A DNA stretch of 32,000 bases from Candidatus Hermodarchaeota archaeon. Its GTDB lineage: Archaea; Asgardarchaeota; Heimdallarchaeia; Hodarchaeales; Hodarchaeaceae. Positions within the stretch are counted from its first letter, which is position 1, and each line of letters starts with the position of its first letter. Of the stretch, positions 1-28,724 are shown piece by piece. Below the pieces are notes generated by a model. The model did no database searches, was not told where the DNA came from, and saw only the letters and a program-made list of their open reading frames with translations. The stretch covers positions 270,001 to 302,000 of the forward strand of contig JBHLKY010000001.1 in NCBI GenBank assembly GCA_048886185.1, read 5' to 3'. A program made the position numbers and the translations under genes.

Positions 1-2
1 CC

Positions 3-3000
3 CAGTATAATAATTTATTCATTGTGCCAGCGAGTGCCACCTCCAAGGGGCAGGAATGGAATTTTACCGTGAGAGTGTTTGATGGTATTCAATGGAGTGA
101 GCTCAATGTGTCTACCACGATCACAATTGCAAATACGAACCCTGAGGTTACCATCGCTGATATTACCACGGATCCTCAAACGACTGATGATCTGGTAGCT
201 AGTTGGACTTCGAGGGATAATGATAGTGATAGTTTAACTTTTATCCTCACTTGGTATATTAATGGGATTGAAAATGCCACGTTTGCAAATAAGACGGTGA
301 TCGGAGCGGGAAACACCACCAAAGGAGAGAAGTGGTATTTCACTGTCCAGGCCTATGATGGGGAAGGATTCTCCAATGTGTTCCCATTGGCTGCGAATGT
401 CACCATCCTGAATACCGCCCCAACAGCGGATAATTTAATCATTACCACTAATCCTACGACTATTGATGATTTAGTAGCAACTTGGGATTATTTTGACATT
501 GACAATGATCCCCGAGATGATGGGCTAGCTCGGATTTGCTGGTTCAAAAATGGGGAAAACCAAACTGCATTAACTAATCAAAAAACTATTGAGGCCACTA
601 ATACCTCTAAAAATCAGGTTTGGTGGTTTACAGTCCGTGTCTTTGACGGGGAGGACTATTCTGGGCTTTATGAGTCCGCTCACATACAGGTCTTAAATAG
701 TATTCCTATGGTGGGAAATTTGGAAATTAGGATGTCAGACCCCAAGACCACAGATGAGTTAGAGGCTCAATGGGTTGCTGTTGATGATGACAACGACATC
801 CTAAGCTACACCATCAAATGGTATAGAGATGCTGTCTATCAGTCAGCTTGGGATAATGAGATCACAATTCCTGCCAGTGCCACCTCAAAAGGCGAAACCT
901 GGTATTTTACTTTGAAAATGTTTGATGGGAGCGAGTATTCCTTAGAAGAGACCCTTAGTCCTGGTGTCCTTATTCTCAATACTCTTCCTGTCGTTGAAGA
1001 CCTGGCGTTAACCCCGGATCCTCAAACGACTGATGATCTGATAGCTAGTTGGATGTCGAGGGATAATGATAGTGATAGTTTAACTTTTATCGTTACCTGG
1101 TATGTCAATGGGATTGAAAATGCCACGTTTGCGAATAAAACGGTGATCGGGGCGGGAAATACTACCAAAGGGGAGGAATGGTATTTTAGTGTCCAAGCAT
1201 ACGATGGAGAAGGATTCTCCAATGTGTTCTCACTGGCTGCGAATGTCACCATTCTGAATACCGCTCCCACAGCGAGTAATTTGATGATTACTACTAATCC
1301 CACCACGCTTGATGACTTAGTTGCTGCTTGGGATTATTTCGATGTAGACAACGATCCCCGAGATGATACGCTAGCTCGGATTTGTTGGTTCAAGAATGGA
1401 TTGAATCAAAGCACTTTAGTCAATCAGAAAATCATTGGGGCAGGTAATACCTCCAAGAATCAAGTCTGGTGGTTTACTGTTCGTGTCTGTGACGGGGAGA
1501 CCCACTCGCTTAGTATCTACGAGTCCGCTCACATTTCTATTCAGAACTCTCTACCTTATAGTTCCTCCGCTCTCCCCATTCCCGTGAATCCTTCTAAGGC
1601 AAATGGCCTAGTATTGACTCTACCTGCCCTTCTTGCGGCTCTCTCAGACCCTGATCCGAGTGATGACATTGAAGTAGTCAGGATTCGCTGGTATAAGGAA
1701 GGTGTGCTGCAAGGGACGTTAAATGACTCCTTAATCGTTCCTGGAACCCGATTGACTAAAGGAGAGAGGTGGAATTATTCCATTGTGCCTTTCGATGGAG
1801 TCGGTTATGGGGTGGTGTGTGTGTCTGCGGAGATAGTCATCTTAAACTCTCGACCGACCATCATTAACACTTATTTCACGGCAACAACTGTTACCACCAT
1901 TAGCAACCTCGTGATCAGCTATCAAGCGGAGGATGCCGATGGGGACCCTATTATTGTCTCAGGGGTCCGCTGGTATCGGTATGATGCAGGGATTCCTGGG
2001 TGGGTGTACAATGCCACCTATGATGATTATGTGAGTCTCCCCGCTATAGCCACTACCAAGGGAGAGAGCTGGAAATATGAACTTGAAGTCTCTGATGGGA
2101 CTGATCCATCCGTTTGGAGAGAGGCGGCGAAAGAGGCGGATATTATCAACAGTCAGCCTCGCGTTGATCCCTTCAGTATCATACTGATAGGAGGTATGAC
2201 TACCTCTGAGCCTTTACAGGTGAGTTATGCCTGGTATGACGATGATCCTGGGGATAGTAATACCCAGACGATTATTACCTGGGAGAACAGTGGGGACTAT
2301 CTTGTCGATACCTATAGCACGACGTTGTCGGCGGATGAAACCATGGCGGGTGAGCGCTGGTGGGTGACGATCACTCCCTCTGATGGTGAGGACTATGGCG
2401 ATTCCGTCAACAGTAAGCGTTATGGTATAAGTATCATCATTGGTAACACTCCTCCCAGTCTCCTGCCAGATGACATTGTGATTAATGGGGAGTTTAATGG
2501 CACCGAATATCAAGGGACGAGTTTTGGCACCGTCTTCAATCTCAATCTTCATTATACGGCATTTGATCTTGATGGGGCTCAAGGGGTTCCAGCGTATGGC
2601 TTATCTCTCGTTGATGGTTTCGCGGTGGGATCCGAATATCGGTGGTATCGCAATCGTTCAGGTACCATAACTCTAATTTCAGCACTAAATGATGAAACAA
2701 CTGTTCCCTTCTATTATACTCAAAAAGGGGATGGTTGGTGGGTTCAAGTGCGTCCTCGAGATTTTTATGGAGATTTTGGCGTTCCTCAAAATTCTACTCA
2801 AATTACTATTGGGAATACCGCACCTCAAATAATTGGATTACACTGGGTACGAGTCACCTATTATACAACCAATAACTTGGTGTTTTATTATACGTTCTTT
2901 GACTATGATACTAAGGATATCCAACGAGGAGTTTTTATCCGCTGGTATCGGAATGGTACTTATTTACCAGGATTTAATAACAATACAGCGATTGCCTCTC

Positions 3001-5384
3001 AGTTCACGAAAAAAGGAGAAGTATGGTATGCGAATCTCAGTGTGTTTGATGGTGAATCTTACAGTGCATGGTATTGCTTACTTAATATCACTATCCAGAA
3101 TTCTCCCCCAACGGCAGCAAGCATTTCCATAACCCCCCTATCTCCCAACACCACCCAGCTCTTGGTAGCAACTTGGATCTTTAATGATGTCGATAATGAT
3201 TCTGAGGATCGTGGCGCCGCCCTCATTCAATGGTTCCGGAATGGGATCCGTGTGGATAACCTCACGAATAGCCAAACAGTGCCCTTCGCCTATACGAATC
3301 GGGGGGAAAGCTGGTACTTCATGGTGCAAGTCACTGATGGGTATAATTACTCCCTTACCCTTTATAAATCGAATACCATTATAATTATTAACTCGGCGCC
3401 AACTGCGGGCGACCTGCAGATCAACAACGGAGATGAGATTAAAACCACTCAAGACCTGGTGCTAAGTTGGAGATTCATTGATCCTGACAATGATATTGAG
3501 GATCGCGCCTCTGTGTTAATCCTCTGGTATTTGAATGGGATCGAACAACCTTTGTTCAGAAATCAATCGACAATTTTAGCGATTAATACTACGAAAAACC
3601 AGCAATGGAGGGTGGCAATCAAGGTCTGCGACAACGGCGGGTTATGGAGTGAGTTCTTGAATTCATCCCTGGTGGTGATCCTGAACTCTGAGCCCGAGAT
3701 TATTATTCATGAGAGCGCCCATCCTGACTTTATCGTTGAGGATGAAACATTTGAAATTAATAGCAGCGTTTTCAGCTATTCCGATGCGGACGGGGATGAA
3801 GCTCAATCCGTGATCAGGTGGTATTGCAATGGGGAGTTGATGTTCCAAAACCTCTGGGGTCTTGCTGCCACTGACACCGTTCCTGGTGATGTCTGGTATT
3901 ACACCATTCAGCCATTCGACGGGACTGATTTTGGGGAGGAATGTAAATCGCCTGCCATCCCCATTGAGAGTCGGCCTGTGATTCATAGTTTTGTGGCGAC
4001 TGCCCTCCCCGACACTGAGGGCCACTATGAGGTGGAGATCAACGTCACGGACTCTCGGAATGAGATTCTTCGCGTAGAATTTTGCTTAGCTCTCAACACC
4101 ACCACTGAACTCCCTCTTTTCGTGATCACCTCTCCCAAGGCTCCGGAGTCATCTCTTTGGCTTCTAGATTACACCCTCGACAGTTACTCCTATCTTGAGA
4201 CCCCGACTCATGTCACCGTGACCGTGGTGACTACAGTCACTTATTCTAATATCACCTCCGAAATCCCCTTAGTTCAGTCATTCACCTTTACACTCGAGGA
4301 TAAAGCACCTCCGCGGGTTCTCAATGCCTATTTTGAGAAGGATGATGAGCTCAATCCCACCAACCTCACTTTTTATGCTGAGGTGCAAGACTTTGGGTCA
4401 GGGATCGCTGAGGTCATTCTCTCCTATTGCTTCCAATCGAGTGAAAAGTTCAACCAGACGGGTGGGAATGGCGCTGCCTTCCTTCAAGACGATCTGGAAT
4501 GGCTAGAGGTGCCTATGATGGTTCAAGCTACCAATGAGAGCGGGAATTTCATCTTGTATGTGGTGACCGTGGGGTTTACCCAGGCCCCCTACAGCCTTGC
4601 CATTATCTATCGGGTTTCGACTGAGGATGTGGCGGGGAATAGCAATCCTGTGGCCTTTGACATCCGTGACTATCCCGAGCGACTTGGGGCTGAAAAAATT
4701 ATCTATAATCCTCCAGGTCTGCCAGAGTGGGTTCTCCTCGTGGCTGGGCTTGTAGTATTCGTCATCTTCATTGGGTCTATAGTTTATGTGAAATTCATCC
4801 GTAAACCCGAACTGGTCGGTTTGGATAAAGAATTGGTTATGGCCAAGGTCTCTGACATCCCTGATGCAGAGGTGATGGCCTCACTGGATGCTCATACCAT
4901 TGGTGTGATTGTTAGCTTTTTCGACCAGAGACACGGCCCGATTCCGATTATCATCGTCCCTGAGATTCTGAAAGACAACTTTAATAAGCTGGTGGAACTC
5001 TCGGATCGCTCTTTCAGTGGCACTGGCTTTGCTGATGATTTTGGTGTTGAAATTCCCTCCAGTTATGACTTTGTGTTATCCCAAGGCATTCGTACAAGTG
5101 TAATGTCTTTTGGGTACGCCCTAGAGCGGCCTGAATCCAGAGGAGGCCAAGAGAACCTTACCTGTAACATTATCATCCATCAAGATCTCTTTCCATTAGT
5201 TCAATCTTTCCAGAACGAGATCAAACGGAATGTCCATTCTCTTCACGTGAGAATGGATAAAAATCCTTCAGAAAAAAATGAGATCCGTAAACTAGTCTTT
5301 GAGCTCAGGAAATTCGTATCTAACATTATATTATCCTACGCGAGCATTTATGGCACAACAGAACTTATAGAAGAGCAGAAATGA
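3..5384 (+). CDS. Giant cell-surface protein, 5'-truncated by the window edge: about 14 cadherin/Ig-like repeats of ~94 aa, a single TM helix and a cytoplasmic uDENN/longin-like domain
   Basis: The frame is open from position 3 (QYNNLFI-VPASAT), so the GTG at 24 is not the true start. Recurrent N[TS]xP...DxDxD...W[YF]xNG...W[YFW]FxVxxxDG units. TM segment PEWVLLVAGLVVFVIFIGSIVYVKF followed by IRK. C-terminal IVSFFDQRHGP...SRGGQENL domain. Confidence 0.85.
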   Translation, partial: QYNNLFIVPASATSKGQEWNFTVRVFDGIQWSELNVSTTITIANTNPEVTIADITTDPQTTDDLVASWTSRDNDSDSLTFILTWYINGIENATFANKTVIGAGNTTKGEKWYFTVQAYDGEGFSNVFPLAANVTILNTAPTADNLIITTNPTTIDDLVATWDYFDIDNDPRDDGLARICWFKNGENQTALTNQKTIEATNTSKNQVWWFTVRVFDGEDYSGLYESAHIQVLNSIPMVGNLEIRMSDPKTTDELEAQWVAVDDDNDILSYTIKWYRDAVYQSAWDNEITIPASATSKGETWYFTLKMFDGSEYSLEETLSPGVLILNTLPVVEDLALTPDPQTTDDLIASWMSRDNDSDSLTFIVTWYVNGIENATFANKTVIGAGNTTKGEEWYFSVQAYDGEGFSNVFSLAANVTILNTAPTASNLMITTNPTTLDDLVAAWDYFDVDNDPRDDTLARICWFKNGLNQSTLVNQKIIGAGNTSKNQVWWFTVRVCDGETHSLSIYESAHISIQNSLPYSSSALPIPVNPSKANGLVLTLPALLAALSDPDPSDDIEVVRIRWYKEGVLQGTLNDSLIVPGTRLTKGERWNYSIVPFDGVGYGVVCVSAEIVILNSRPTIINTYFTATTVTTISNLVISYQAEDADGDPIIVSGVRWYRYDAGIPGWVYNATYDDYVSLPAIATTKGESWKYELEVSDGTDPSVWREAAKEADIINSQPRVDPFSIILIGGMTTSEPLQVSYAWYDDDPGDSNTQTIITWENSGDYLVDTYSTTLSADETMAGERWWVTITPSDGEDYGDSVNSKRYGISIIIGNTPPSLLPDDIVINGEFNGTEYQGTSFGTVFNLNLHYTAFDLDGAQGVPAYGLSLVDGFAVGSEYRWYRNRSGTITLISALNDETTVPFYYTQKGDGWWVQVRPRDFYGDFGVPQNSTQITIGNTAPQIIGLHWVRVTYYTTNNLVFYYTFFDYDTKDIQRGVFIRWYRNGTYLPGFNNNTAIASQFTKKGEVWYANLSVFDGESYSAWYCLLNITIQNSPPTAASISITPLSPNTTQLLVATWIFNDVDNDSEDRGAALIQWFRNGIRVDNLTNSQTVPFAYTNRGESWYFMVQVTDGYNYSLTLYKSNTIIIINSAPTAGDLQINNGDEIKTTQDLVLSWRFIDPDNDIEDRASVLILWYLNGIEQPLFRNQSTILAINTTKNQQWRVAIKVCDNGGLWSEFLNSSLVVILNSEPEIIIHESAHPDFIVEDETFEINSSVFSYSDADGDEAQSVIRWYCNGELMFQNLWGLAATDTVPGDVWYYTIQPFDGTDFGEECKSPAIPIESRPVIHSFVATALPDTEGHYEVEINVTDSRNEILRVEFCLALNTTTELPLFVITSPKAPESSLWLLDYTLDSYSYLETPTHVTVTVVTTVTYSNITSEIPLVQSFTFTLEDKAPPRVLNAYFEKDDELNPTNLTFYAEVQDFGSGIAEVILSYCFQSSEKFNQTGGNGAAFLQDDLEWLEVPMMVQATNESGNFILYVVTVGFTQAPYSLAIIYRVSTEDVAGNSNPVAFDIRDYPERLGAEKIIYNPPGLPEWVLLVAGLVVFVIFIGSIVYVKFIRKPELVGLDKELVMAKVSDIPDAEVMASLDAHTIGVIVSFFDQRHGPIPIIIVPEILKDNFNKLVELSDRSFSGTGFADDFGVEIPSSYDFVLSQGIRTSVMSFGYALERPESRGGQENLTCNIIIHQDLFPLVQSFQNEIKRNVHSLHVRMDKNPSEKNEIRKLVFELRKFVSNIILSYASIYGTTELIEEQK
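171..1535 (+). repeat. Near-identical DNA duplication of a two-domain block within a three-domain supra-repeat (period ~846 nt)
   Basis: gatcctcaaacgactgatgatctg occurs at 171 and 1017. gagtccgctcacat occurs at 672 and 1521 (offset 849, one extra codon). agtgccacctc occurs at 33 and 876. Confidence 0.9.
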
Positions 5385-15684: not shown

Positions 15685-18600
15685 TTACTTTTTTCTTCGA
15701 AGCCAAACCAATAATAGACTTAACGATAGGATAGAGAAAATTAATTCAAATCCGGATGCTCCAATTTCTGGGCCTTCTTTACTCTCAGGGGTTGTTGCAG
15801 TGGTTTCTTCAATGTTATTAATTTCAAAGAGATCTGATTGTAAGCTGGTAGTATCTGTTCCATCAGAGATTTCGATAATGATTCTATATCCAGTATCATC
15901 AGGATAAGCCGTACTGTCGAAAGAATATGTTGTATCAGTAGTGCCTGATTTTAATGTAATTTTTGTTCCATCTGGCTTAACAAGGATAATGGTAGATGTA
16001 AGAATATCTCCATCAGGATCACTGGCAGTCCAAGTAATGATTTCTGTACCACTGATAACATTATCTATATTTTCAAGTGTTCCTTCTGGAGCTCTATTCC
16101 CTATCTGAACTTTCACTCTAATGATCAATGGTGTTGTTTCATCACCTATTAATCCAATGACAAATGTGCGAACTCCCGCTGTGAGGCCCGACGGATTGTA
16201 GTGGAAAGTGAACGTCTTTTGATCAACTTCTGCCCAATTTGTGAATGATTGGGATTGTTCAACAAATGCCTCAGTCCATGCGAAAATTCTTCCAGAGGGA
16301 ACAGTTCCAATGCCTATGTTGGTTAACCTGACGATAATATCAAATTCTTCGTTTAAATCGACGTATGTTGGGGCGTTTATATCGTCAAATTCGACTGCAT
16401 GTGTGAATGTTTCATATCCCTCGAATGAGAAGTGAATATCTATCCCAGATATTGTCGTTAACACCATTTTGTACCTTAGAACTTGAGGGTAATTATTTGG
16501 ATAACTGTAATCAATGATATGAGTTTTGTAGCTAATAATATGGCCTGATTCTGTAAGAGCTCTTACACGTAAGACCATAACTTGTGGTTTTGAGATTCCA
16601 GCATCTCCTGCAACGGGGAAGACATCAATGAAATATTCTCCTTTAATAGGTGAGTGAATTGTTAGATTTTGTGAATCCGGTATGAGTCCTGAATAGGTAG
16701 TTCCAGGATATGCCTCTTCAAAGCCTGTTGTATAGTTGTAACCAACACTCATAGTTGAATTCCATAGGTAGATTGCAGAACCATCCACTGATTCCAAGGT
16801 AACTTCAAGCGAGTCCATTGGAATGTGTCCATAATAAACCTGCTGTGCAAGAATAGCTTGTACTGTCGCAAACACTGGAGGTTCTCCTCCCATGGTATTT
16901 TCCCAATAGGCTCTGGTGGAAGTCACATATATCATGTGAGTATTGAGATACTCTGTTATACTGTCATACCACCACTGATCACTATCACGTCCTGCCATAA
17001 GGAACGCTTTGCTTGCTGAAAGATACCAATAGTATTCAAATGAACGACCTGAATGTGGATTTCCACCAACAATCTGTCCAGAATTGTTAATCCAATCGAG
17101 GGCGGATAATATGTCAGGATCGTTTGGTTCAGATCCACTGAGATATAATCCCCAGATTCCTGCCGCTGTCATTGATCCATAGCTACTACTGCCCCAATCA
17201 CGCCAATCTTCAGTACTCGGAGTGTAGGTAAAGCCACCATCGTATCTCCAAATTCCTTCCTCGTCATATCCTCCTCTACAGCGCCTAACAAAAATATCGA
17301 CTTTATCCCAAAGATTAGGATCAAATGGATCCAATCCCCCAGGATTGAAGTTTTCATAGGTTGATAGTGTGAGGATTGCCCACTGACTTACAGAAAGATC
17401 AGACGATTGGTGATCGTCTCCATATCGCCAACCACCGTACCAGGGATCACTTAGATCTACGCTCCACGTTTCGTCATTTTGTGTATAGACCAACCATGCA
17501 ATAGCATCATCAATAAGTGAATCTAGAGCAGAATCGTACCCAGGGAGGGTCGCATTGTAAGCGAGTAAAGTAGTAGTTGCCATAGCAGTCTCATAAGTAC
17601 TATGATAGATTGACCTACCATCATCTTGATCAAAGCTAAAAGTATTTTGCAGGTATCCAATTGCATCTTCAACAACCTGATCATAAGCCAAACCTGCTTG
17701 GATGAAGCAGAGAGCAGCAAGAGCTGCCATTCCTGGTCTACCATATTCTTGCCCAGGTTGATAATCCCATGATCCATCGGGATTTTGTTGAGTTCGTAAC
17801 CAAGCTAATCCTTTGGTGATGGTACTTTCTGGTGAGGGAATCGTACCAGGGTCGATAGTGATTGAAATGGTGGTTTCCGAGGTCTTATAGGTCATATCAT
17901 ACGCTCTTATGGTTATTTCAATATTTCCTATGAGATCATGTGAAGGGAACCAAGTAAACCTAAAATCAGGCCCAGAGGCTGGTTCACCCCAATTCCATTC
18001 ATAAGGATTGTAAGTAAATAAAACCTCTTGACCAGAAAGAATCTGATAGTATAATATAGCAGATTCATCAATGCTTGTTCCAGTGATAGAGATTCCATAG
18101 TATTGCCCAAAATGTGCTCCATTTGTAGGTGTGGTAATGCTTACACTAGGTGGGGATGTATCTTCTGTTATATCTACTCTCACAGTAAGATCCTGAGTGG
18201 CAGTTGGGGGCTGATCGTAATCTGCATGGAGTACTTGAAAGAGCCATGGACTTGTGTATTTACCAATCTGTATCAAGTAATGATCCGTATTGATATTCCC
18301 CATCCATTCCTCCCATCGAATAATATCTCGATCCCAAATGCTGCGAAGGCGTCCAAAACCATCTAGATACCATATATCGAAATCGGGTAATCCCACATCT
18401 ACCGGTTCAGTTCGCTCTACCTGTAAGTGAAGAACATCATTAAAGTATTGTGGAACTATACCAAACAATTCAGAATCATTAACTGCGAGAGTCCCAAAAT
18501 TATATTCATCACCAGGCCCTAGAACTTGTATTGGGGAAATAGAGCTAATATCTATTGCAGTCGAGTAAGGAGCGACTGCATATGACATATTACAAGGGCT

Positions 18601-21025: not shown

Positions 21026-21568
21026 ATGGAAGTAAAGATTGGATCAACCATTATACGTTTGGTTCTAGGGGATATTACTCAAGAAAACACTGACATCATT
21101 GTAAATGCGGCAAACACTTCACTCAGAGGAGGTGGGGGTGTTGATGGAGCTATTCATCGTGCTGGGGGTTCTGAGATCCTGCAGGAATGTGTCGAGAAGT
21201 ATCCTGAGGGATGTGAAACGGGGGAAGCTCGAATAACTACAGCGGGACAGTTAAATGCTAAATTTGTAATCCATACACCTGGTCCGATTTGGAAAGGTGG
21301 GAGACAAAACGAGGATGATCTTCTAGCAAGTTGTTATCGTAATTCTCTCCATCTCGCCATAGAATATGATGCTAAAACAATTGCATTTCCGTCTATTTCA
21401 ACTGGAGTGTATAGGTTTCCGATTGATAGGGCATCAAAAATAGCACTTTTAACCGTTATTGAAAATCTAGTGTCGACTTCTATAATAGAAGTTCACTTTG
21501 TCTTATTTAGTGATTCAGACCTTCAAATCTACGAGAAAAATCTTCTAGAGATAATTAATAACAGATAA
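21026..21568 (+). CDS. ymdB: Macrodomain O-acetyl-ADP-ribose deacetylase / mono-ADP-ribosyl hydrolase (MacroD/YmdB type)
   Basis: [39 protein letters not shown]. Confidence 0.9.
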
Positions 21569-21612: not shown

Positions 21613-22362
21613 TTAAGAGTTACGTGGTTTTTTTGCTTTTATCCTAAATTTAGGGATTTTTTCTTCATATGTTGGTGGTGGTTTTTGCCTTGATGGTGTT
21701 TTTATTTTAATTTTTTTAGGAATAAGTCTGTTTATTCCCTTAGATTCCTTTTTCTTTTCTGCTCCTCTTGATGTGGGAATAGTCATATTTATTATTGCTG
21801 CTGAAGGTTTTTTATCACTAACTCTGGGAACAGGTTTGTTAACGAAATTAGATTTCTTTTTTGAAGAGCTTCCTAAGGAATGAGGTATTTTAATTTCCTT
21901 ATTCGGATGCTTAGGAATTGGAGCAGGTTGATTTGAAACCAATTTTTTTCGATTTCTTTTCGAAAGCGCCCCAAGACTAGTTGGTGGAGCATGAGATCTT
22001 TCTTGTTGTGAAGAAGACTTTGGAGGAGTTTTAGAATTAACTGTGTTTTGATCCTTCTCTTTTATTGGAGATTTAACTGGTTTGAGAGAAGTTTCGCCCT
22101 TAATTTGATCTGATAATGGAGGTGGAACATTATAATAAGGAGTATCATCTTTTGATGGTTCAATTGTTCCATGTCTGGAAGGTAGTGAGTTTGATGACTT
22201 TGGTATGTTTACTTTCAACTTTTGTTTTGGTGGAGGAAGTTCAAATACTTCTTCTGCCCCGTTTGGAAATTTAGATTTAATTATTGAACTTTTAGAATTC
22301 GTGGGGATCTTCTGTTTAATTTCCTTACTAGGCTTTTTCTCACGGATTTTCCATCTTACCAA
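21613..22362 (-). CDS. Lys/Pro/Ser-rich intrinsically disordered protein with short internal repeats
   Basis: 249-aa open frame in AT-rich DNA, TTG start, very low hydrophobic content, repeated P[TH]S[LR]G..KKK. Confidence 0.6.
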   Translation of the reverse strand: MVRWKIREKKPSKEIKQKIPTNSKSSIIKSKFPNGAEEVFELPPPKQKLKVNIPKSSNSLPSRHGTIEPSKDDTPYYNVPPPLSDQIKGETSLKPVKSPIKEKDQNTVNSKTPPKSSSQQERSHAPPTSLGALSKRNRKKLVSNQPAPIPKHPNKEIKIPHSLGSSSKKKSNFVNKPVPRVSDKKPSAAIINMTIPTSRGAEKKKESKGINRLIPKKIKIKTPSRQKPPPTYEEKIPKFRIKAKKPRNS

Positions 22363-22469: not shown

Positions 22470-23054
22470 CTATTTTCCAAATAAAAATCCAATTCCAGAA
22501 AAGAGGAAAAATAAACCATATAGGATCCCTATTAAATCAGTAGTTATTAGCCCTGCAGTTAAGAAAAGTGCACCAAATACAAAAAAAGTTATTAGAGCAG
22601 TCCATTCTGCTGAGGGCCCTTTCTCAGATTGCGAAGTAATTCTAATGAATTGATATCGAGTGAAACTACGTAATAACAGGGCGGATGATACTGCTAAATA
22701 CGGAAATGCTAATATTGAGGATACAGTAATTTGAAGTTGAGTGAATTCATTTACAGGTAGAATTTCAACGTTAAAAGTTAACAATGGTTCTTCATTAAGA
22801 GGGAAGAACGAACTTGTAAGTATAACCAATAAGGGAATGATATTCGCTAATGAAAAAAAGTAAATCTCATTCAAGGTTGCTTTTACATCAATATAATATA
22901 GAATTCTTAGAAAATAAAATATAGTTATGGTTGCATATAGAGTCAGGTAGAGAATATTCATAGCATTACTGTCTTCATCACGTATGAAGAAAAAAATACT
23001 AGCTGATATTCCCATAAGGAAGACAAAAAATGCCATGGAATGACGTGAAGCCAT
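22470..23054 (-). CDS. Multi-pass (about 6 TM) membrane protein, last tightly coupled gene of the Ubl operon
   Basis: Alternating hydrophobic helices; 4 bp gap to the upstream gene. Confidence 0.75.
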   Translation of the reverse strand: MASRHSMAFFVFLMGISASIFFFIRDEDSNAMNILYLTLYATITIFYFLRILYYIDVKATLNEIYFFSLANIIPLLVILTSSFFPLNEEPLLTFNVEILPVNEFTQLQITVSSILAFPYLAVSSALLLRSFTRYQFIRITSQSEKGPSAEWTALITFFVFGALFLTAGLITTDLIGILYGLFFLFSGIGFLFGK

Positions 23055-23058
23055 CTTT

Positions 23059-24213
23059 TTAGCCCCATCGGTTATTTAGAAGATTTTCCTGAAACATTTT
23101 AATTAATTTCTCGTAATTCTTCCCAGAAAGACGATACATCTTTTTTGTTGAGATAGGTTTATTACATCGGGAACAAATATCTGCAACACTAAGCCATTTT
23201 TCTAACTCAAGCGAATGAGCTGGATGACCACAATGAGGACAGATGACTACTTTCTTATCTGGTTCAGTGGGAAATCCATAACAAAAAATACATCGAAAGT
23301 CATCATGAGATAAATGTTGGCCAGAGGGAATAAGCTTAGTAATGATAGCTGGATTTAGTCTGTCGATACGAGTAACTGTTCTCCCTGTTTGTATTCCTGG
23401 AGCTACTGTAACAGAGTTGATACTTTCGGATCGTGGTGTTCTAGACATTTGGGGTACTGATCTTGGTTGTAATAGGCTTGCTTGATTCGTTCTTGGTTGG
23501 CTATTTGCATTGCGAGGACTAACTGAGGATGTTCTATTAACAATAAAAGATCTCCCTAATGTTTGTTGAGGTAAACGATTAACAGTCACACGACGGATTG
23601 GAACAAGAACAACCTTAAGTATATAATATTGGATCAGAAAAATAATACTAACACTAACAAAACATAATCCACTAAATTCAATAATCCTAGTTTGGATCCA
23701 AAAAAAAGCTAAACTTAAAATTATACAGAGATTATACAGAATGACAATTTTGTTGGGAACCTTCCTTCTAAAGATAAAAATTGATGGATACCTGTTTGAA
23801 TAATACTTTTGGAGGAGAAATAGGAGAAATATAAAGAATGGTAACACAAAAATAATACTAAATATGTTTAGAAAAACAAAATAATTTCCACCATTAATAA
23901 ACTCAATGTCGAGAGAGATTTCGAAGAAAGATGATCGTAGAAAATCATTTTCTCCTAAAGACGCTGTATGAGCTATCAATGTTCCCCCATATGCGATTAA
24001 CGACGGGATTCCAATAAAGATTCCCGAGGCAATTGGAGCATTATAATGCTGGAAATATCGCCATTCCTCAAGAAATTTTAAAATCAAAATTGCAGTTAAA
24101 GTAATATAAGCAATTGTAAGAGCAGTTTCTATTGGTTGATCAGTGAGTAATGTTAATAGCGTAAAAACAAACCCGACGACACAGATAGAAAGATATACAT
24201 TACGCCCGACCAA
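23059..24213 (-). CDS. Multi-pass membrane protein with C-terminal RING-variant zinc finger (putative membrane E3 ligase)
   Basis: About 6 TM helices, an R/S/P/Q-rich linker, then CIFC-x13-CPHCGHPAH-x2-E-x2-KWL-x5-CSRC (nt 23164-23292). Confidence 0.75.
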   Translation of the reverse strand: MVGRNVYLSICVVGFVFTLLTLLTDQPIETALTIAYITLTAILILKFLEEWRYFQHYNAPIASGIFIGIPSLIAYGGTLIAHTASLGENDFLRSSFFEISLDIEFINGGNYFVFLNIFSIIFVLPFFIFLLFLLQKYYSNRYPSIFIFRRKVPNKIVILYNLCIILSLAFFWIQTRIIEFSGLCFVSVSIIFLIQYYILKVVLVPIRRVTVNRLPQQTLGRSFIVNRTSSVSPRNANSQPRTNQASLLQPRSVPQMSRTPRSESINSVTVAPGIQTGRTVTRIDRLNPAIITKLIPSGQHLSHDDFRCIFCYGFPTEPDKKVVICPHCGHPAHSLELEKWLSVADICSRCNKPISTKKMYRLSGKNYEKLIKMFQENLLNNRWG

Positions 24214-24231: not shown

Positions 24232-25152
24232 TTAATTCTCATGATCATATTCTAAAAACATACTACCATTTTTCTCTGCTAGTGGAAGAAGGGTATTCAT
24301 CATCTCAGGAAGGCTCTCTAGAGGGCAATTAAGGACTTGGTAGGGTGGTTCTTCCCAGGTTTGCAAATCCTCTTTTAAACGGAATATTTTAAAGCCATAT
24401 GAACGTTTAGATATTTTTGTTGGATCAATAACTAAAGCAATAGGTGCTGTTAACTGGGAGTCTTTCGTCCTTCCAAGTTTTTGGTAGCGAACTTGAGTCT
24501 CAAAATCGGTTTGACTCATGAATACTCCATATGATGGGTGACTATGATACCAACCAAGAATAAGCTGATCATGGGTTTTCATTTTTATTTCATTATACAC
24601 TCTGACCATGGATTGAGGATCTTGGATTTGTGCATTTACCTCAGTGCCATGACCAATTGGATAGGCATCCTCGACATTTAAACATGCTAATGGAGTATCT
24701 TTTTGTTCAATTTGTCCCGTTAAAAGCCCGATTACCTCAATCCATTTACTTTGGGGTGTATTCGGATTTGCGTACTTTAAAGCATGTAAAGCAAGCTTTA
24801 TGTAAGCTTTAAGATGAATTTTAACACGAGAAGGCTTCGAGTCGGGATCTAGGTCATCAAGATTTAAGTCAACAGATTCTGTGTTTTCTTCTCGATTTTG
24901 ATTCATATTATGATTTTCATCCTTATTGAGATTCTCTGATCCGTTGGTAAAAAGCTTCTCTGTTTTTGTTTTTAATTGGGAAGGTTTAAACTGTATTTGC
25001 TTACTTAATGGATTCCAAGTATAATTATCAGGCGGGAGAGTAATGAAAGGAAATTTTAACGTAAATGATAAAGTTTGAGGGTCAAATGTTAATGAAAGAT
25101 CCCGTAGTAGTAATTCGAAAACATTTTTGGGAATTTTATTATTATTAGGCAT
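24232..25152 (-). CDS. JAB1/MPN+ (JAMM) metallo-isopeptidase, Rpn11/CSN5-like, with N-terminal extension
   Basis: EVIGLL plus GWYHSHPSYGVFMSQTD (E...HxH-x7-S-x2-D intact), TQ..YQ, ALVIDP. Confidence 0.9.
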   Translation of the reverse strand: MPNNNKIPKNVFELLLRDLSLTFDPQTLSFTLKFPFITLPPDNYTWNPLSKQIQFKPSQLKTKTEKLFTNGSENLNKDENHNMNQNREENTESVDLNLDDLDPDSKPSRVKIHLKAYIKLALHALKYANPNTPQSKWIEVIGLLTGQIEQKDTPLACLNVEDAYPIGHGTEVNAQIQDPQSMVRVYNEIKMKTHDQLILGWYHSHPSYGVFMSQTDFETQVRYQKLGRTKDSQLTAPIALVIDPTKISKRSYGFKIFRLKEDLQTWEEPPYQVLNCPLESLPEMMNTLLPLAEKNGSMFLEYDHEN

Positions 25153-25181: not shown

Positions 25182-25709
25182 TTACCATTTTTCAGAAGCA
25201 TATTTCTTAGTAATTTTATGGGCTTTTTTCAAGAAATTCTTGCGATCACTAAGATATTCTTGAGCTGCTTTCTTATTGAAAACATCATGAGGATTAGTAT
25301 ACGCTGTGTCAATGTTGAACATTGCTAAAATCGAATAAATTATTGTACTAATGTTTTTTGAAGGAGACCAACCGTCTGGTCTTCCCACAAGGTCGGGGTC
25401 AACAAGAGCTAGGCATATATTCCGTTTTCCTTGATATTCGTCAGGTTTTGGCCAGAAATTTGGATGCCAAATTGGAGTATGTAATCGGACAAAAGGGGGG
25501 GAATATGGGTAGTTTGATCCAAACTTAATTTCTAGTTTGAATTTGCCCTTTTCATAAGGGGTTCCTTTCGGTCCCTCAAGAAGAATTGCTAAGTGTTCTA
25601 CGCTTTTTTTTCCGCCTGGAAAGGCCTTTAGCTGCTTAATGGTTTTTTGTTTGTATAATTTTTTTAGTTGTTTATAATCATCAGCGATTCGTTTAAGTCT
25701 GATAGACAT
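25182..25709 (-). CDS. Ubiquitin-conjugating enzyme E2 (UBC fold)
   Basis: GPKGTPYEKG.F, YPYSPP, HPN motif, catalytic Cys (codon 25415-25413) in ICL, WSP. AGGTG SD. Confidence 0.92.
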   Translation of the reverse strand: MSIRLKRIADDYKQLKKLYKQKTIKQLKAFPGGKKSVEHLAILLEGPKGTPYEKGKFKLEIKFGSNYPYSPPFVRLHTPIWHPNFWPKPDEYQGKRNICLALVDPDLVGRPDGWSPSKNISTIIYSILAMFNIDTAYTNPHDVFNKKAAQEYLSDRKNFLKKAHKITKKYASEKW

Positions 25710-25725
25710 TTCTCACACCTTTTTA

Positions 25726-26970
25726 TTACTCAATTTTCAATTTAATATAGGATTGAGTGCCATCATCAAACCCCGTGACCAATATAGTCTCATAATCTCG
25801 GATTCCAGCTTCAAATATGCTCTGATTTGTATCAATTTCATTAATATCTGAATTATCTATACGAAAAACAATTGGAGGAAATTCTGGATCAATGGTGAGC
25901 TTTTTTTCTTCCGCTAATTTATTGATGATCTTTTGAATATTTGCCTTAGAATTCACTTTTATCCGATAGAGGGGGGAATGGTTATTACCACACATTGTAC
26001 AATCTGGGTTCTTAGGTTTTTCAATTTCATAGAACTTCCCAGTCAAACCATTGTATATCACATAATTTAATTGAAGTGTTCCAAGTTTTCTTTTTTCTGG
26101 AGGTGTGTGGAGATGATGAAGAATTTTAACTGCTTCTTGTGATTGTAGAGATGCCATTACACAATTGATGGTGATAACTGTTGGCTCGTGATTATCTATT
26201 ATTTGGATGATCTGATCAGTCGTAAACGGTTGTGAGCCGGGAAAATATTGTTTAAGTAGATGATTCGCATATTCTCTAATGGTGTCAACTTCATCTTGTT
26301 TGAGAATGTTCACCGGCCGATTGTAATCCTGTTCAAATTTCAATTGGCCTTTGAGTATACAATGAGCTGGTCTACGGGGATTACCTACTAAAGTGCAAGC
26401 CCCTAGCTGATCTTGTTCTCGTTCTGTTAATGGATCACACTCTAAACAAGCATTACTGAATGGCCAGACACAATAAACGTGTCCATTGAATGCTGCTGTA
26501 CCAGCATCGATCAATGGCTTTCGATTATGAATAGCTCGCCTGTTTAATTCTGACCTTGCTTCTATTGAATCTAAGCCAGCGATGTAAAGATCAGCTTCAT
26601 TATATAGATGGGGAGGTAGATCTTGAAGCGCGCAATTATGAGCCTCTACTTCAATGAAAGGATTCAATTCTTGTAAACGTTTAGCCGCATATTGTGCCTT
26701 AGATGTTCCCTCTGTGGCTCCGATGAACAGTACCTGGCGATTCAAATTAGAATATTCAATTGTATCAAGATCCACCAGGATTAATCGGCCGACTCCGACC
26801 ATTGCGAGGTTTTTTGCAACTTCCACACCGAGGCCACCAACGCCAACAATAAGAACGGTACTTTTTTTAAGGATCTCTTGTTTCCATCCAGGTAAACGGA
26901 GTTGGCGATCAAAGCGACGCTTTTCTTCTTCAGTGAACAGGTTACTGGTGAAACTTGATATTTTATTCAT
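25726..26970 (-). CDS. Ubl-activating enzyme E1 (ThiF fold with UBA2/UBA3-like catalytic Cys segment and C-terminal ubiquitin-fold-like domain)
   Basis: RFDRQ, GVGGLG, DLDTIEYSNLNRQ, Zn pairs CLEC/CTMC, catalytic GACTLVGNPRRPAHCI. Confidence 0.9.
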   Translation of the reverse strand: MNKISSFTSNLFTEEEKRRFDRQLRLPGWKQEILKKSTVLIVGVGGLGVEVAKNLAMVGVGRLILVDLDTIEYSNLNRQVLFIGATEGTSKAQYAAKRLQELNPFIEVEAHNCALQDLPPHLYNEADLYIAGLDSIEARSELNRRAIHNRKPLIDAGTAAFNGHVYCVWPFSNACLECDPLTEREQDQLGACTLVGNPRRPAHCILKGQLKFEQDYNRPVNILKQDEVDTIREYANHLLKQYFPGSQPFTTDQIIQIIDNHEPTVITINCVMASLQSQEAVKILHHLHTPPEKRKLGTLQLNYVIYNGLTGKFYEIEKPKNPDCTMCGNNHSPLYRIKVNSKANIQKIINKLAEEKKLTIDPEFPPIVFRIDNSDINEIDTNQSIFEAGIRDYETILVTGFDDGTQSYIKLKIE

Positions 26971-26983
26971 ATTTTTTCAACTA

Positions 26984-27346
26984 CTAATTTATTGATCCAG
27001 CTGTTGAAACTGGGATAATCAAACATTCAAGTCCATCTTCAATATCATAATTCGAGAGAACATCATCTGCATCTAAGGTTCTTCCACTTATGGATATATG
27101 GAAGTCTTGTGGATCAAGACCGAAGATTCCTCCAAGCGTTTCTTTTAAATCTGAGACCCCCATCTCAGGATCGATTGTGAGTTTTTCAAGTTTCTCTCCA
27201 GGCCCAATTGTGGATCGAAAGAATAAACTAACGCGAGAATCTTTTGGGATTTTACTTGTAGGCACTTTTGTCGTCACTACAGGAGTTTCTGAGTTCTTCT
27301 TTTCTTCTTCAATTTCCAGGTCATCAAAATCTTCATTTTCAGACAT
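26984..27346 (-). CDS. Ubiquitin-like protein 2 (acidic N-tail; C-terminal STAG masked by SIN)
   Basis: Beta-grasp pattern FFRST...SGRTLD...LSNYDIEDG..LIIP aligns by eye to ubiquitin. The start is moved to 27346 because of a GGAGA SD and collinearity with the Ubl1 N-terminus. Confidence 0.85.
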   Translation of the reverse strand: MSENEDFDDLEIEEEKKNSETPVVTTKVPTSKIPKDSRVSLFFRSTIGPGEKLEKLTIDPEMGVSDLKETLGGIFGLDPQDFHISISGRTLDADDVLSNYDIEDGLECLIIPVSTAGSIN

Positions 27347-27522
27347 TAAGCAATTCTCCATTCTGATTAAAAGCATCCAAATTATCAATTCATCTTCAAT
27401 ATGAAAAACATTGTTTTTTGAATCTTCTTTTGTTTGCAAATAATCTTCTGAATACGTCAATTTAATTATTCCCTTTTATCTCATAGGTACAAAATTGATG
27501 TGATTTGATGATGGAAATTGAT

Positions 27523-27805: not shown

Positions 27806-28153
27806 TCATCCAGCCGTACTGTGAGGGATCAAAAGAATTTCATCGCCGTTATCGACACCATAATCACCTAAAGGTGCTGACTCATCTAGAGTCCGACCGG
27901 CGTGGCTTAGATGAAAATCATCTGGATTTAACCCAAAGATGTTAGCCAAGGTGTCTCTGACGTCTCTAACAGGAGTGTTTTCTCCTACAGAAATTTTTTC
28001 AGTACGTTCAGGCCCAACGGTGGATTTGAAGAAAATATTCTTCTTAGGACCTGCAGATACTCCTGATACTGGAGTTTTCGATTGGGCGGGAGTTTTGGAT
28101 TTAATTCTGGTTTTTTCTTCTAAATCAAAGTCCAAATCTTCAAAATCTGACAT
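27806..28153 (-). CDS. Ubiquitin-like protein 1 (acidic N-tail; free C-terminal STAG)
   Basis: IFFKST...AGRTLD...LGDYGVDNGD.ILLIP; ends HSTAG-stop. AGGTGA SD. Confidence 0.88.
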   Translation of the reverse strand: MSDFEDLDFDLEEKTRIKSKTPAQSKTPVSGVSAGPKKNIFFKSTVGPERTEKISVGENTPVRDVRDTLANIFGLNPDDFHLSHAGRTLDESAPLGDYGVDNGDEILLIPHSTAG

Positions 28154-28273: not shown

Positions 28274-28304
28274 GGTGAAAGTAATATTTTCCATCAAAGA
28301 GATT

Positions 28305-28724
28305 ATGAAAGAAGATGAGGTTGACTTATTGTCAGAAAGTGCCCAAAATACCAAAATTTCTAGTAAGGCGTGGGAACTTTTACGATGGGCAAAATTTGAG
28401 CTTGATGCAAAATCTTACAGTGATGTAATTGTTTTATTAAACAAGAAAATTAATAACCGGTCGAAAAGTATGGAAAAGGCATTAGAAAACTTCGATGAGG
28501 AACGACATAGGATCAAAGTAAAAACACCCGGTAATGATGAAGAACAAAGCATTTTCTTAGAAAAACCTAAAACAATCTTATTAAGACCCGAAGCTCGAAA
28601 GATTCTCAATCGATTAAAATTAGAAAGCAATAAACCAGCATATACATTTTCGGATGGAATTGAATTTATAATAAAAGGAAATAAAGAAATCTGGAACGCT
28701 ATTCCTGATCGTTTGAAGAAATAA
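28305..28724 (+). CDS. Tandem ribbon-helix-helix-like DNA-binding protein
   Basis: Two similar units, NTKISSKAWELLRWAK..AKSYSDVIVLL and KTILLRPEARKILNRLK..AYTFSDGIEFII, resemble the archaeal RHH/VapB-type pattern TI.IS...Y..L...K...SFSDVI. The ATG at 28305 is preferred over the GTG at 28275 because of the TATA position. Confidence 0.55.
   Translation: MKEDEVDLLSESAQNTKISSKAWELLRWAKFELDAKSYSDVIVLLNKKINNRSKSMEKALENFDEERHRIKVKTPGNDEEQSIFLEKPKTILLRPEARKILNRLKLESNKPAYTFSDGIEFIIKGNKEIWNAIPDRLKK

Follow-up and report, generated by a model that had tools for sequence, protein, structure and literature searches.

Why does a ubiquitin-type conjugation operon of an Asgard archaeon end in two adjacent membrane proteins, one with a RING-like finger and one without? 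The question is raised by a 32,000-nucleotide (nt) stretch of a Candidatus Hermodarchaeota archaeon genome (class Heimdallarchaeia, order Hodarchaeales; assembly GCA_048886185.1, contig JBHLKY010000001.1, positions 270,001 to 302,000), which we call the window and in whose coordinates positions are given unless another locus is named. A first-pass annotation of the window had proposed that the two genes, here called B and A in order of transcription, are a RING-bearing and a RING-less copy of one transmembrane (TM) domain. We find that this is almost certainly so: A and B are paralogs across a whole domain of six TM helices (6-TM domain), all of A being homologous to the membrane part of B. 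The genes and their parts are laid out as follows, with the basis of each assignment in brackets.

23059..24213, reverse strand: gene B, 384 amino acids (aa), polytopic: 6-TM domain, then disordered linker, then RING-like finger at the C-terminus (open reading frame, ORF; homologs P0070-P0118)
23605..24213, reverse strand: membrane domain of B (6-TM), residues 1-203, to which the whole of A is homologous (hydropathy, positive-inside count, AlphaFold2 (AF2) secondary structure)
23329..23604, reverse strand: Ser/Arg/Thr/Pro-rich disordered linker of B, residues 204-295 (predicted local distance difference test, pLDDT, <50 for residues 204-279)
23062..23328, reverse strand: RING/U-box-like zinc finger of B with flanking helices, residues 296-384 (profile match, Foldseek, VIA)
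23055..23058, reverse strand: B/A spacer of 4 nt, AAAG, from B's TAA to A's ATG (sequence)
22470..23054, reverse strand: gene A, 194 aa, the RING-less paralog, 6-TM domain only (ORF; homologs P0003-P0069)

BLASTP of A against residues 1-215 of B was not significant (E 4.5), and identity in the profile alignments is just 14-18%. Both observations would fit convergence or compositional bias of two hydrophobic 6-TM proteins in place of homology. The comparison of family profiles with hhalign, a check that the annotation had called for, gave a significant alignment, collinear from residue 1 of both proteins. It covered 129 columns in the first round (probability 87.6%, E 3.5e-6) and 181 columns, A 1-185 against B 1-191, with families widened by divergent members from other Heimdallarchaeia genomes (probability 97.1%, E 5.5e-11, score 73.8); these 181 columns are the whole 6-TM domain. 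A separate profile-profile run on the first-round families scored 40.6. Because hydrophobic proteins can yield spurious profile matches, we made controls that preserve composition and TM layout. First-round reversed profiles scored 16.6 and 15.6, and column shuffles (180 runs, windows of 5, 10 or 20) had a mean of ~16, a standard deviation of 3.5 and a maximum of 28. For the widened families, the reversed profile reached 13.4, and the shuffle means were 24, 16 and 16 for windows of 4, 8 and 16, with a maximum of 39, far below the 73.8 of the true alignment. Together with the end-to-end match and the loop motifs described below, this makes a non-homologous origin of the likeness very improbable.

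Other comparisons agree. The A and B families gave reciprocal weak cross-matches with hidden Markov models, and in one genome (G024) the A profile matched the adjacent B ORF (E 1.2e-5). A joint MAFFT alignment has the same register as the profile alignment and shows motifs common to A and B: YY..x.A..x6..F after TM2, a Pro in TM4 and RY..[FI][IF] after TM4. Two of the blocks that the annotation had matched by eye, LYLTLYATITIFYFL with AYITLTAILILKFL and SSILAFPYL..LLLRSFTRYQFI with FSIIFVLPFF..LLQKYYSNRYPSIFI, fall into this register; the third, IIPLL with GIPSL, is four residues out, and in the joint alignment Pro70 of B pairs with a Pro of A (LPIIP) that is kept in other families and lost in this genus. 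Taken alone, the N-terminal halves of A and B are clearly related (96%, 3.4e-9) and the C-terminal halves weakly so (P 0.003). Comparing the N-half with the C-half of each family gave no signal of an internal 3+3 repeat (P 0.05-0.23). Finally, a combined A+B profile of 201 positions, run against 1.84 billion representative proteins, retrieved 74 clusters, which hold proteins of ~195 aa or TM-plus-finger proteins of 337-465 aa, besides fragments and one 239-aa A-type variant. That it recovers just these two architectures is a further argument for homology. A and B can be placed in one Asgard 6TM superfamily, defined by a collinear match to the combined profile, six predicted TM helices and the common loop motifs.

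The predicted structures follow the same layout, as the annotation had anticipated in proposing a shared-fold check. AF2 models built on the family alignments (pLDDT 79.9 for A and 78 for B, whose membrane part is mostly >90) were compared as secondary-structure strings and have one order of elements: three helices, an outside two-stranded hairpin and three more helices. In A these are (H, helix; E, strand) H2-26, H29-56, H63-83, E92-98, E103-109, H111-133, H147-171 and H174-192; in B, H2-23, H28-56, H64-80, E95-102, E110-116, H117-138, H155-175 and H180-202. The loops between TM2 and TM3 and between TM4 and TM5 are basic, as is the tail, and those between TM1 and TM2 and between TM3 and TM4 are acidic. 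Since these charges follow the positive-inside rule, B is predicted to have both termini in the cytoplasm, with the TM3-TM4 beta-hairpin outside and the linker and finger cytoplasmic. A ends six residues after TM6. B starts with a TTG codon, at a position kept as M or L in its relatives, among which the linker varies in length and sequence.

Does this domain belong to a known membrane fold? It has no clear solved relative and no Pfam model. Pfam and NCBIfam hold no family for the TM domain of A or B (sub-threshold DUF308, 0.024), the combined TM profile matched no PDB sequence at E up to 10, a shape search of the ESM Atlas with the membrane domain reached TM-scores up to 0.38, and protein-atlas searches by feature and structure gave no usable match. 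Foldseek found nothing in the PDB for the A model (best E 0.22), and VIA-wide comparison of that model returned only helical bundles, either designed or from soluble proteins, at Z up to 9.4, with HRD1 not among the top 50. For the B model, the best membrane-protein match among 48,161 chains in VIA-wide was human HRD1 (9uav_B, Z 7.9; root-mean-square deviation, rmsd, 3.6 Å over 114 residues, B 1-141, window 23791-24213, against chain residues 143-266). As this score is tied with unrelated soluble helical proteins, and lies well under the VIA noise bound for helical bundles, we take the match as a lead and nothing more.

The HRD1 lead bears on the annotation's suggestion that the two proteins are channel halves. 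A and B would then build a channel for protein conduction or retrotranslocation, comparable to the half-channels of Hrd1 and Der1 in endoplasmic-reticulum-associated degradation (ERAD), with substrates pulled from the membrane or envelope for tagging. The architecture of B, that of a polytopic ubiquitin ligase (E3) with a C-terminal RING, would suit this scheme, as would the identity of its best membrane-protein match. Given a score at noise level, no HRD1 among the top 50 for A, no PDB sequence match, no internal repeat and no match to a transporter or channel fold, the pore goes unsupported and we regard it as highly unlikely.

We next consider the finger of B, which is RING-like by fold and context and has a partly canonical ligand set. 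A RING has eight ligands in cross-brace spacing, C-x2-C ... C-x(1-3)-[CH]-x(2-4)-H-x2-C ... C-x2-C; B reads C-x2-C-x13-C-x2-C-x4-H-x2-E-x10-C-x2-C, with a ligand core from C308 to C350 (23164-23292) and seven conserved zinc ligands (C308, C311, C325, C328, H333, C347 and C350). All seven are invariant in the B family, together with I309, E336 and W340, and H330 is only ~90% conserved, with Y or R in some relatives. Against PDB sequences, the B family profile matched the RING of RNF24 (2ep4_A, E 4.4e-5). The best 50 Foldseek matches of the B model are all RING or U-box (E from 0.065, probability up to 1.0, TM-score by target 0.6-0.77), and VIA aligned it to 3lrq_A (Z 8.4, rmsd 4.2 Å, 75 residues) and to Ring1b (Z 7.5, 3.0 Å, 69 residues). 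The finger, modelled with pLDDT 80-90, is thus predicted to adopt a RING/U-box fold.

Could such a finger use an E2, the conjugating enzyme? Contact with an E2 involves a hydrophobic residue after ligand 1, a Trp after ligand 6 and a basic linchpin after ligand 8. In the B family, Ile309 and Trp340 never vary and stand at the RING positions of E2 contact; C350 is followed by Asn351 and Lys352, both invariant, which leaves the linchpin one residue shifted or absent. In srfp, the RING protein of Caldiarchaeum, the counterparts of Ile309 and Trp340 (I30 and W58) matter for E2 use (PMC5654768). Two observations speak against a ligase. Ligand position 6, normally Cys, is occupied by the invariant Glu336 (23206-23208); this Glu is also present in divergent single-copy Loki-type relatives (AHxxE) and is therefore a family feature, not a local mutation. 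In Pfam, the last ~90 residues of B have sub-threshold matches to many zinc fingers including zf-RING_2, Prok-RING_1 and PHD, and both zf-RING_2 (E 0.002 at best) and Prok-RING_1 (0.0024) stay under the gathering score. The missing Cys and these scores keep ligase activity from being certain; we nevertheless consider it likely that B is an E3.

The genomic context points the same way. The other genes of the operon, and the two genes that follow A, are listed below.

27806..28153, reverse strand: ubiquitin-like protein (Ubl) 1, ending ..STAG (ORF; orthologs at the operon head in related loci)
26984..27460, reverse strand: Ubl 2, of ubiquitin fold, with C-terminus ..STAGSIN (ORF; Pfam ubiquitin below cutoff, 2.7e-4)
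25726..26970, reverse strand: activating enzyme (E1), ThiF family (Pfam 2.6e-54)
25182..25709, reverse strand: E2, UQ_con (Pfam 3.2e-27)
24232..25152, reverse strand: JAB/MPN (Rpn11-like) isopeptidase, directly upstream of B (Pfam JAB 1.8e-15)
21613..22362, reverse strand: the Lys-rich gene, for a disordered protein (19% K) in which [IV]P[KTHSR] motifs recur; it follows A after 107 nt (ORF)
21026..21568, forward strand: Macro-domain gene, convergent at the operon end (Pfam 4.4e-44)

Genes for a Ubl, a ThiF E1, a UBC E2, a RING-like protein and a JAB protease are clustered on one strand, which places the B-A system among the archaeal Ub-E1-E2-RING-JAMM operons. A and B are the last genes of the conjugation set, in the order Ubl-Ubl-E1-E2-JAB-B-A, and the order E2-JAB-B is kept in every locus examined, Heimdall and Loki-type.

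Some observations on the surroundings stand apart from A and B. The ORF of Ubl 2 counts 158 aa and its true start is probably an internal Met. The two Ubl genes end in ..STAG-stop and ..STAGSIN-stop, giving an Ala-Gly tail, not Gly-Gly. Upstream of the operon, a divergent gene of 149 aa (28275-28724, forward strand) may regulate it; BLAST detects relatives of this gene at the corresponding position of other Hodarchaeales loci (L080, L086 and L088), and G052 and G053 have weak matches close to A or B. The G+C content is 0.43-0.49 in positions 1-5000 of the window and ~0.31-0.40 in most of the remainder (0.435 at 17001-18000).

Where did the second copy come from? Among 400 Asgard genomes, the A profile found 54, all in four families (f1, f2, f4 and f6) of Heimdallarchaeia, the class of the window, and full-length B occurs in the same four. 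The combined profile has two matches per genome in 50 Heimdall genomes and exactly one, an ORF of 372-408 aa, in ~110 genomes of other Asgard families. These single-copy proteins have the architecture of B and end a Ubl-E1-E2-JAB-B operon, with no A. They are carried by Promethearchaeia/Lokiarchaeia (Lokiarchaeum ossiferum, Promethearchaeum), Helarchaeota-type genomes, Borrarchaeum and Sifarchaeum. One member is encoded by the cultured Candidatus Lokiarchaeum ossiferum Loki-B35, whose genome is complete (L178; CP104013.1, 3534296-3536438); this protein has 32% identity to a Promethearchaeia query and gives an experimental entry point.

In a tree of the membrane domain, A and B are each monophyletic (100/100) and have parallel internal structure, and the duplication is therefore older than the split of these families. 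When B proteins of Loki/Hel type were added, A remained monophyletic (100/99) and joined beside non-Heimdall B on long branches, with 82/52 at the node; with an attachment point that is not robust, A may have split from the Heimdall B lineage or earlier. Gene order fits an insertion by tandem duplication, as a convergent Macro-domain gene comes directly after B in Loki-type loci and in the window A and the Lys-rich gene stand between B and the convergent Macro gene. Such a duplication may have taken place in an ancestor shared by several families of Heimdallarchaeia. The place of the Macro gene directly after B in Loki/Hel-type loci (L106 7199-7861, L109 7504-8166) also hints at a link of ADP-ribose handling with the Ubl system.

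Since the duplication, A has been maintained under strong constraint. Mean column identity is 71% in the A family against 58% in the B family, and the most conserved parts of A are two predicted cytoplasmic loops (top-residue frequency 0.77 and 0.81). The A-specific conserved cytoplasmic loop sequence is RSFTRYxFIRxTxxSExGPSAE. This sequence argues against A being a negative regulator or decoy that pairs with B instead of a second B, lowers the number of RING fingers and so tunes the ligase, much as inactive partners do in RING dimers. A decoy might well look like A, which has the whole membrane domain without linker and RING and arose where a single-copy B existed before; conserved loops of its own suggest that A gained a binding function rather than mere capping, and we hold the decoy role to be improbable.

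What, then, would the pair do? The account that we favor, at slightly better than even confidence as a whole, is that B is a membrane E3 and A an accessory subunit that docks a partner or substrate. B would be the membrane-embedded RING-type E3 of the operon's own system of two Ubls, E1, E2 and JAB protease. With six helices and both termini in the cytoplasm, it would keep its RING finger, by way of the flexible linker, at the inner membrane face, where the finger would recruit the operon's charged E2. A would join B in the membrane, a hetero-oligomer replacing the ancestral B-only assembly, and would dock a partner or substrate through its two highly conserved cytoplasmic loops. The Lys-rich disordered protein encoded next to it would be the obvious candidate.

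The annotation had inferred a heterodimer of A and B, and several lines of evidence are consistent with one. E2-JAB-B-A forms a same-strand run in families f1, f2 and f4 and in some of f6, so that the B-A adjacency is found in four families, and the copy number is one per genome outside Heimdallarchaeia and two within. A without B was seen in just three genomes, each 68-78% complete. Genomes that lack A and B also lack the operon-type E2, retaining distant E2-like genes; G055, which belongs to this group, has sister genomes in which A is unlinked from B. A complex prediction from alignments for B 1-215 with A scored 0.01 against a mark of 0.32; it gives no verdict and we use it neither way. 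Physical contact in one complex, as we judge it, is about evenly poised, and so, taken separately, is a role of A as accessory or adaptor subunit of the membrane ligase.

Several observations weigh against a fixed partnership. In some f6 genomes A is inverted or on another contig (G045, G053, G054, G052 and G056), and strict co-translation is thus not required. The 4-nt gap is real; the translational coupling that the annotation read from it is at most suggested, as open frames overlap or nearly abut in related loci within the genus and stand roughly 40-140 nt apart in loci of other families. B is single in all non-Heimdall Asgard lineages, which means that A is not needed for basic ligase function. 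The most frequent neighbour of A in the loci examined is the Lys-rich gene, not B, which would fit an independent role too. The co-occurrence of A and B is, moreover, in part phylogenetic inertia, as related genomes are not independent of one another.

These points lead to the main rival of the accessory-subunit account, namely that A and B no longer form one complex and that A has a membrane job of its own, such as anchoring or receiving the Lys-rich protein, and sits beside B merely as a relic of tandem duplication. Several f6 genomes have A apart from B or inverted relative to it, with the Lys-rich gene still next to A; B does its work alone in the other classes of Asgard archaea; and the C-terminal halves of A and B have strongly diverged. 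An A that had parted from B would not be expected just in genomes with B, bar the three incomplete ones, nor to vanish with the operon even in G055, nor to keep same-strand adjacency in four families. We therefore find this alternative possible and rather unlikely.

Both accounts involve the Lys-rich protein. Of the 10 Heimdall loci besides the window that went through the motif filter, 8 have, as the window does, a Lys-rich, disordered ORF with the IPK motif adjoining A; among them is G053, where A and the B operon sit on different contigs. BLAST-detectable orthologs occur downstream of A in four loci of the genus. The protein has no Pfam or NCBIfam match, and no such ORF was found in the five Loki-type (B-only) loci scanned. 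The ORFs beside A (19-29% K) in several Heimdall families are, in the coordinates of each locus:

L092 10348-11004: Lys-rich ORF
L093 4460-5215: Lys-rich ORF
L095 5845-6591: Lys-rich ORF
L098 2785-3570: Lys-rich ORF
L101 8320-8994: Lys-rich ORF
L066 2197-3141: Lys-rich ORF

The Lys-rich protein may be a client, adaptor, partner or substrate of the system. The annotation had offered a substrate receptor or ligase cofactor as the other possibility beside a channel, and for the accessory subunit that we favor such a role fits better, because A is best conserved in its predicted cytoplasmic loops and retains the Lys-rich gene as a neighbour even when separated from B.

How does this system compare with those already known? 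Operon-encoded archaeal ubiquitylation, with Ub, an E1-like and an E2-like enzyme, srfp and an Rpn11/JAMM protease, has been described in Caldiarchaeum subterraneum and Asgard archaea (PMC5654768), and a Helarchaeial cascade provides an Asgard case (bioRxiv 10.1101/2023.07.25.550441). The window has the same enzyme set in one operon and a finger with the E2-contact Ile and Trp and, as in srfp, one more Cys close to ligands 3 and 4. E3s described for such operons are small and soluble; here the predicted E3 is a 384-aa 6-TM protein with Glu at ligand 6, followed by a RING-less paralog. In the openly searchable literature we found no description of a membrane-embedded operon E3 or of a RING-less paralog, and the Asgard operon E3 is treated there as a small soluble RING protein. 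Closest to B are the single-copy Asgard 6TM-RING proteins, which share its N-terminal 6-TM domain, S/R/T-rich linker, position after JAB and finger pattern DDFKCIFC ... CPxCxxPxHxxE ... CSRC, and differ in occurring once per genome, with no RING-less paralog and, in the five loci scanned, no Lys-rich neighbour.

Asgard ubiquitin operons are the best available model for the origin of the eukaryotic ubiquitin system. If the operon's only E3 is, as we infer, a polytopic membrane protein conserved across several Asgard lineages including Lokiarchaeia, it would place the Ubl system at the membrane, and what the system tags becomes directly testable, cultured Lokiarchaeum ossiferum included. To our knowledge, membrane-bound ubiquitin ligases have so far been described mainly in eukaryotes. 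There, polytopic RING E3s of the Hrd1/gp78 type act in the ER membrane with membrane partners, Hrd3/SEL1L and Der1, in ERAD. B would resemble them in working principle, with a cytosolic RING for E2 recruitment placed after a multi-pass membrane domain, and non-catalytic membrane subunits beside it. Membership of the Hrd1 family is unsupported: there is no detectable sequence relation, the structural match is at noise level, and the domain of B has six helices and an outside hairpin, not eight helices. Moreover, A is paralogous to the predicted ligase, unlike Hrd3 and Der1. It is a speculative and rather improbable idea that the 6TM-RING proteins are the archaeal forerunner, or first prokaryotic functional equivalent, of eukaryotic ERAD-type ligases, already turned by duplication in Heimdallarchaeia into two subunits, a ligase and a RING-less receptor presenting a Lys-rich client or adaptor. 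If it were true, membrane-coupled ubiquitylation with accessory subunits would predate eukaryotes.

A second comparison concerns the pair itself. In BRCA1-BARD1, RING1B-BMI1 and MDM2-MDMX, a paralog with weak or no ligase activity partners an active RING protein, and many eukaryotic E3 complexes are thought to have gained non-catalytic subunits by duplication. A and B would share with such pairs a duplication after which labour is divided, one subunit recruiting the E2 and its paralog being accessory. The eukaryotic partners both keep their RING and pair through it; A has lost the RING entirely, and any pairing with B would go through the membrane domain. The Heimdall-specific RING-less paralog would be a natural example, and a clean one, of how duplication adds a non-catalytic subunit to a ligase.

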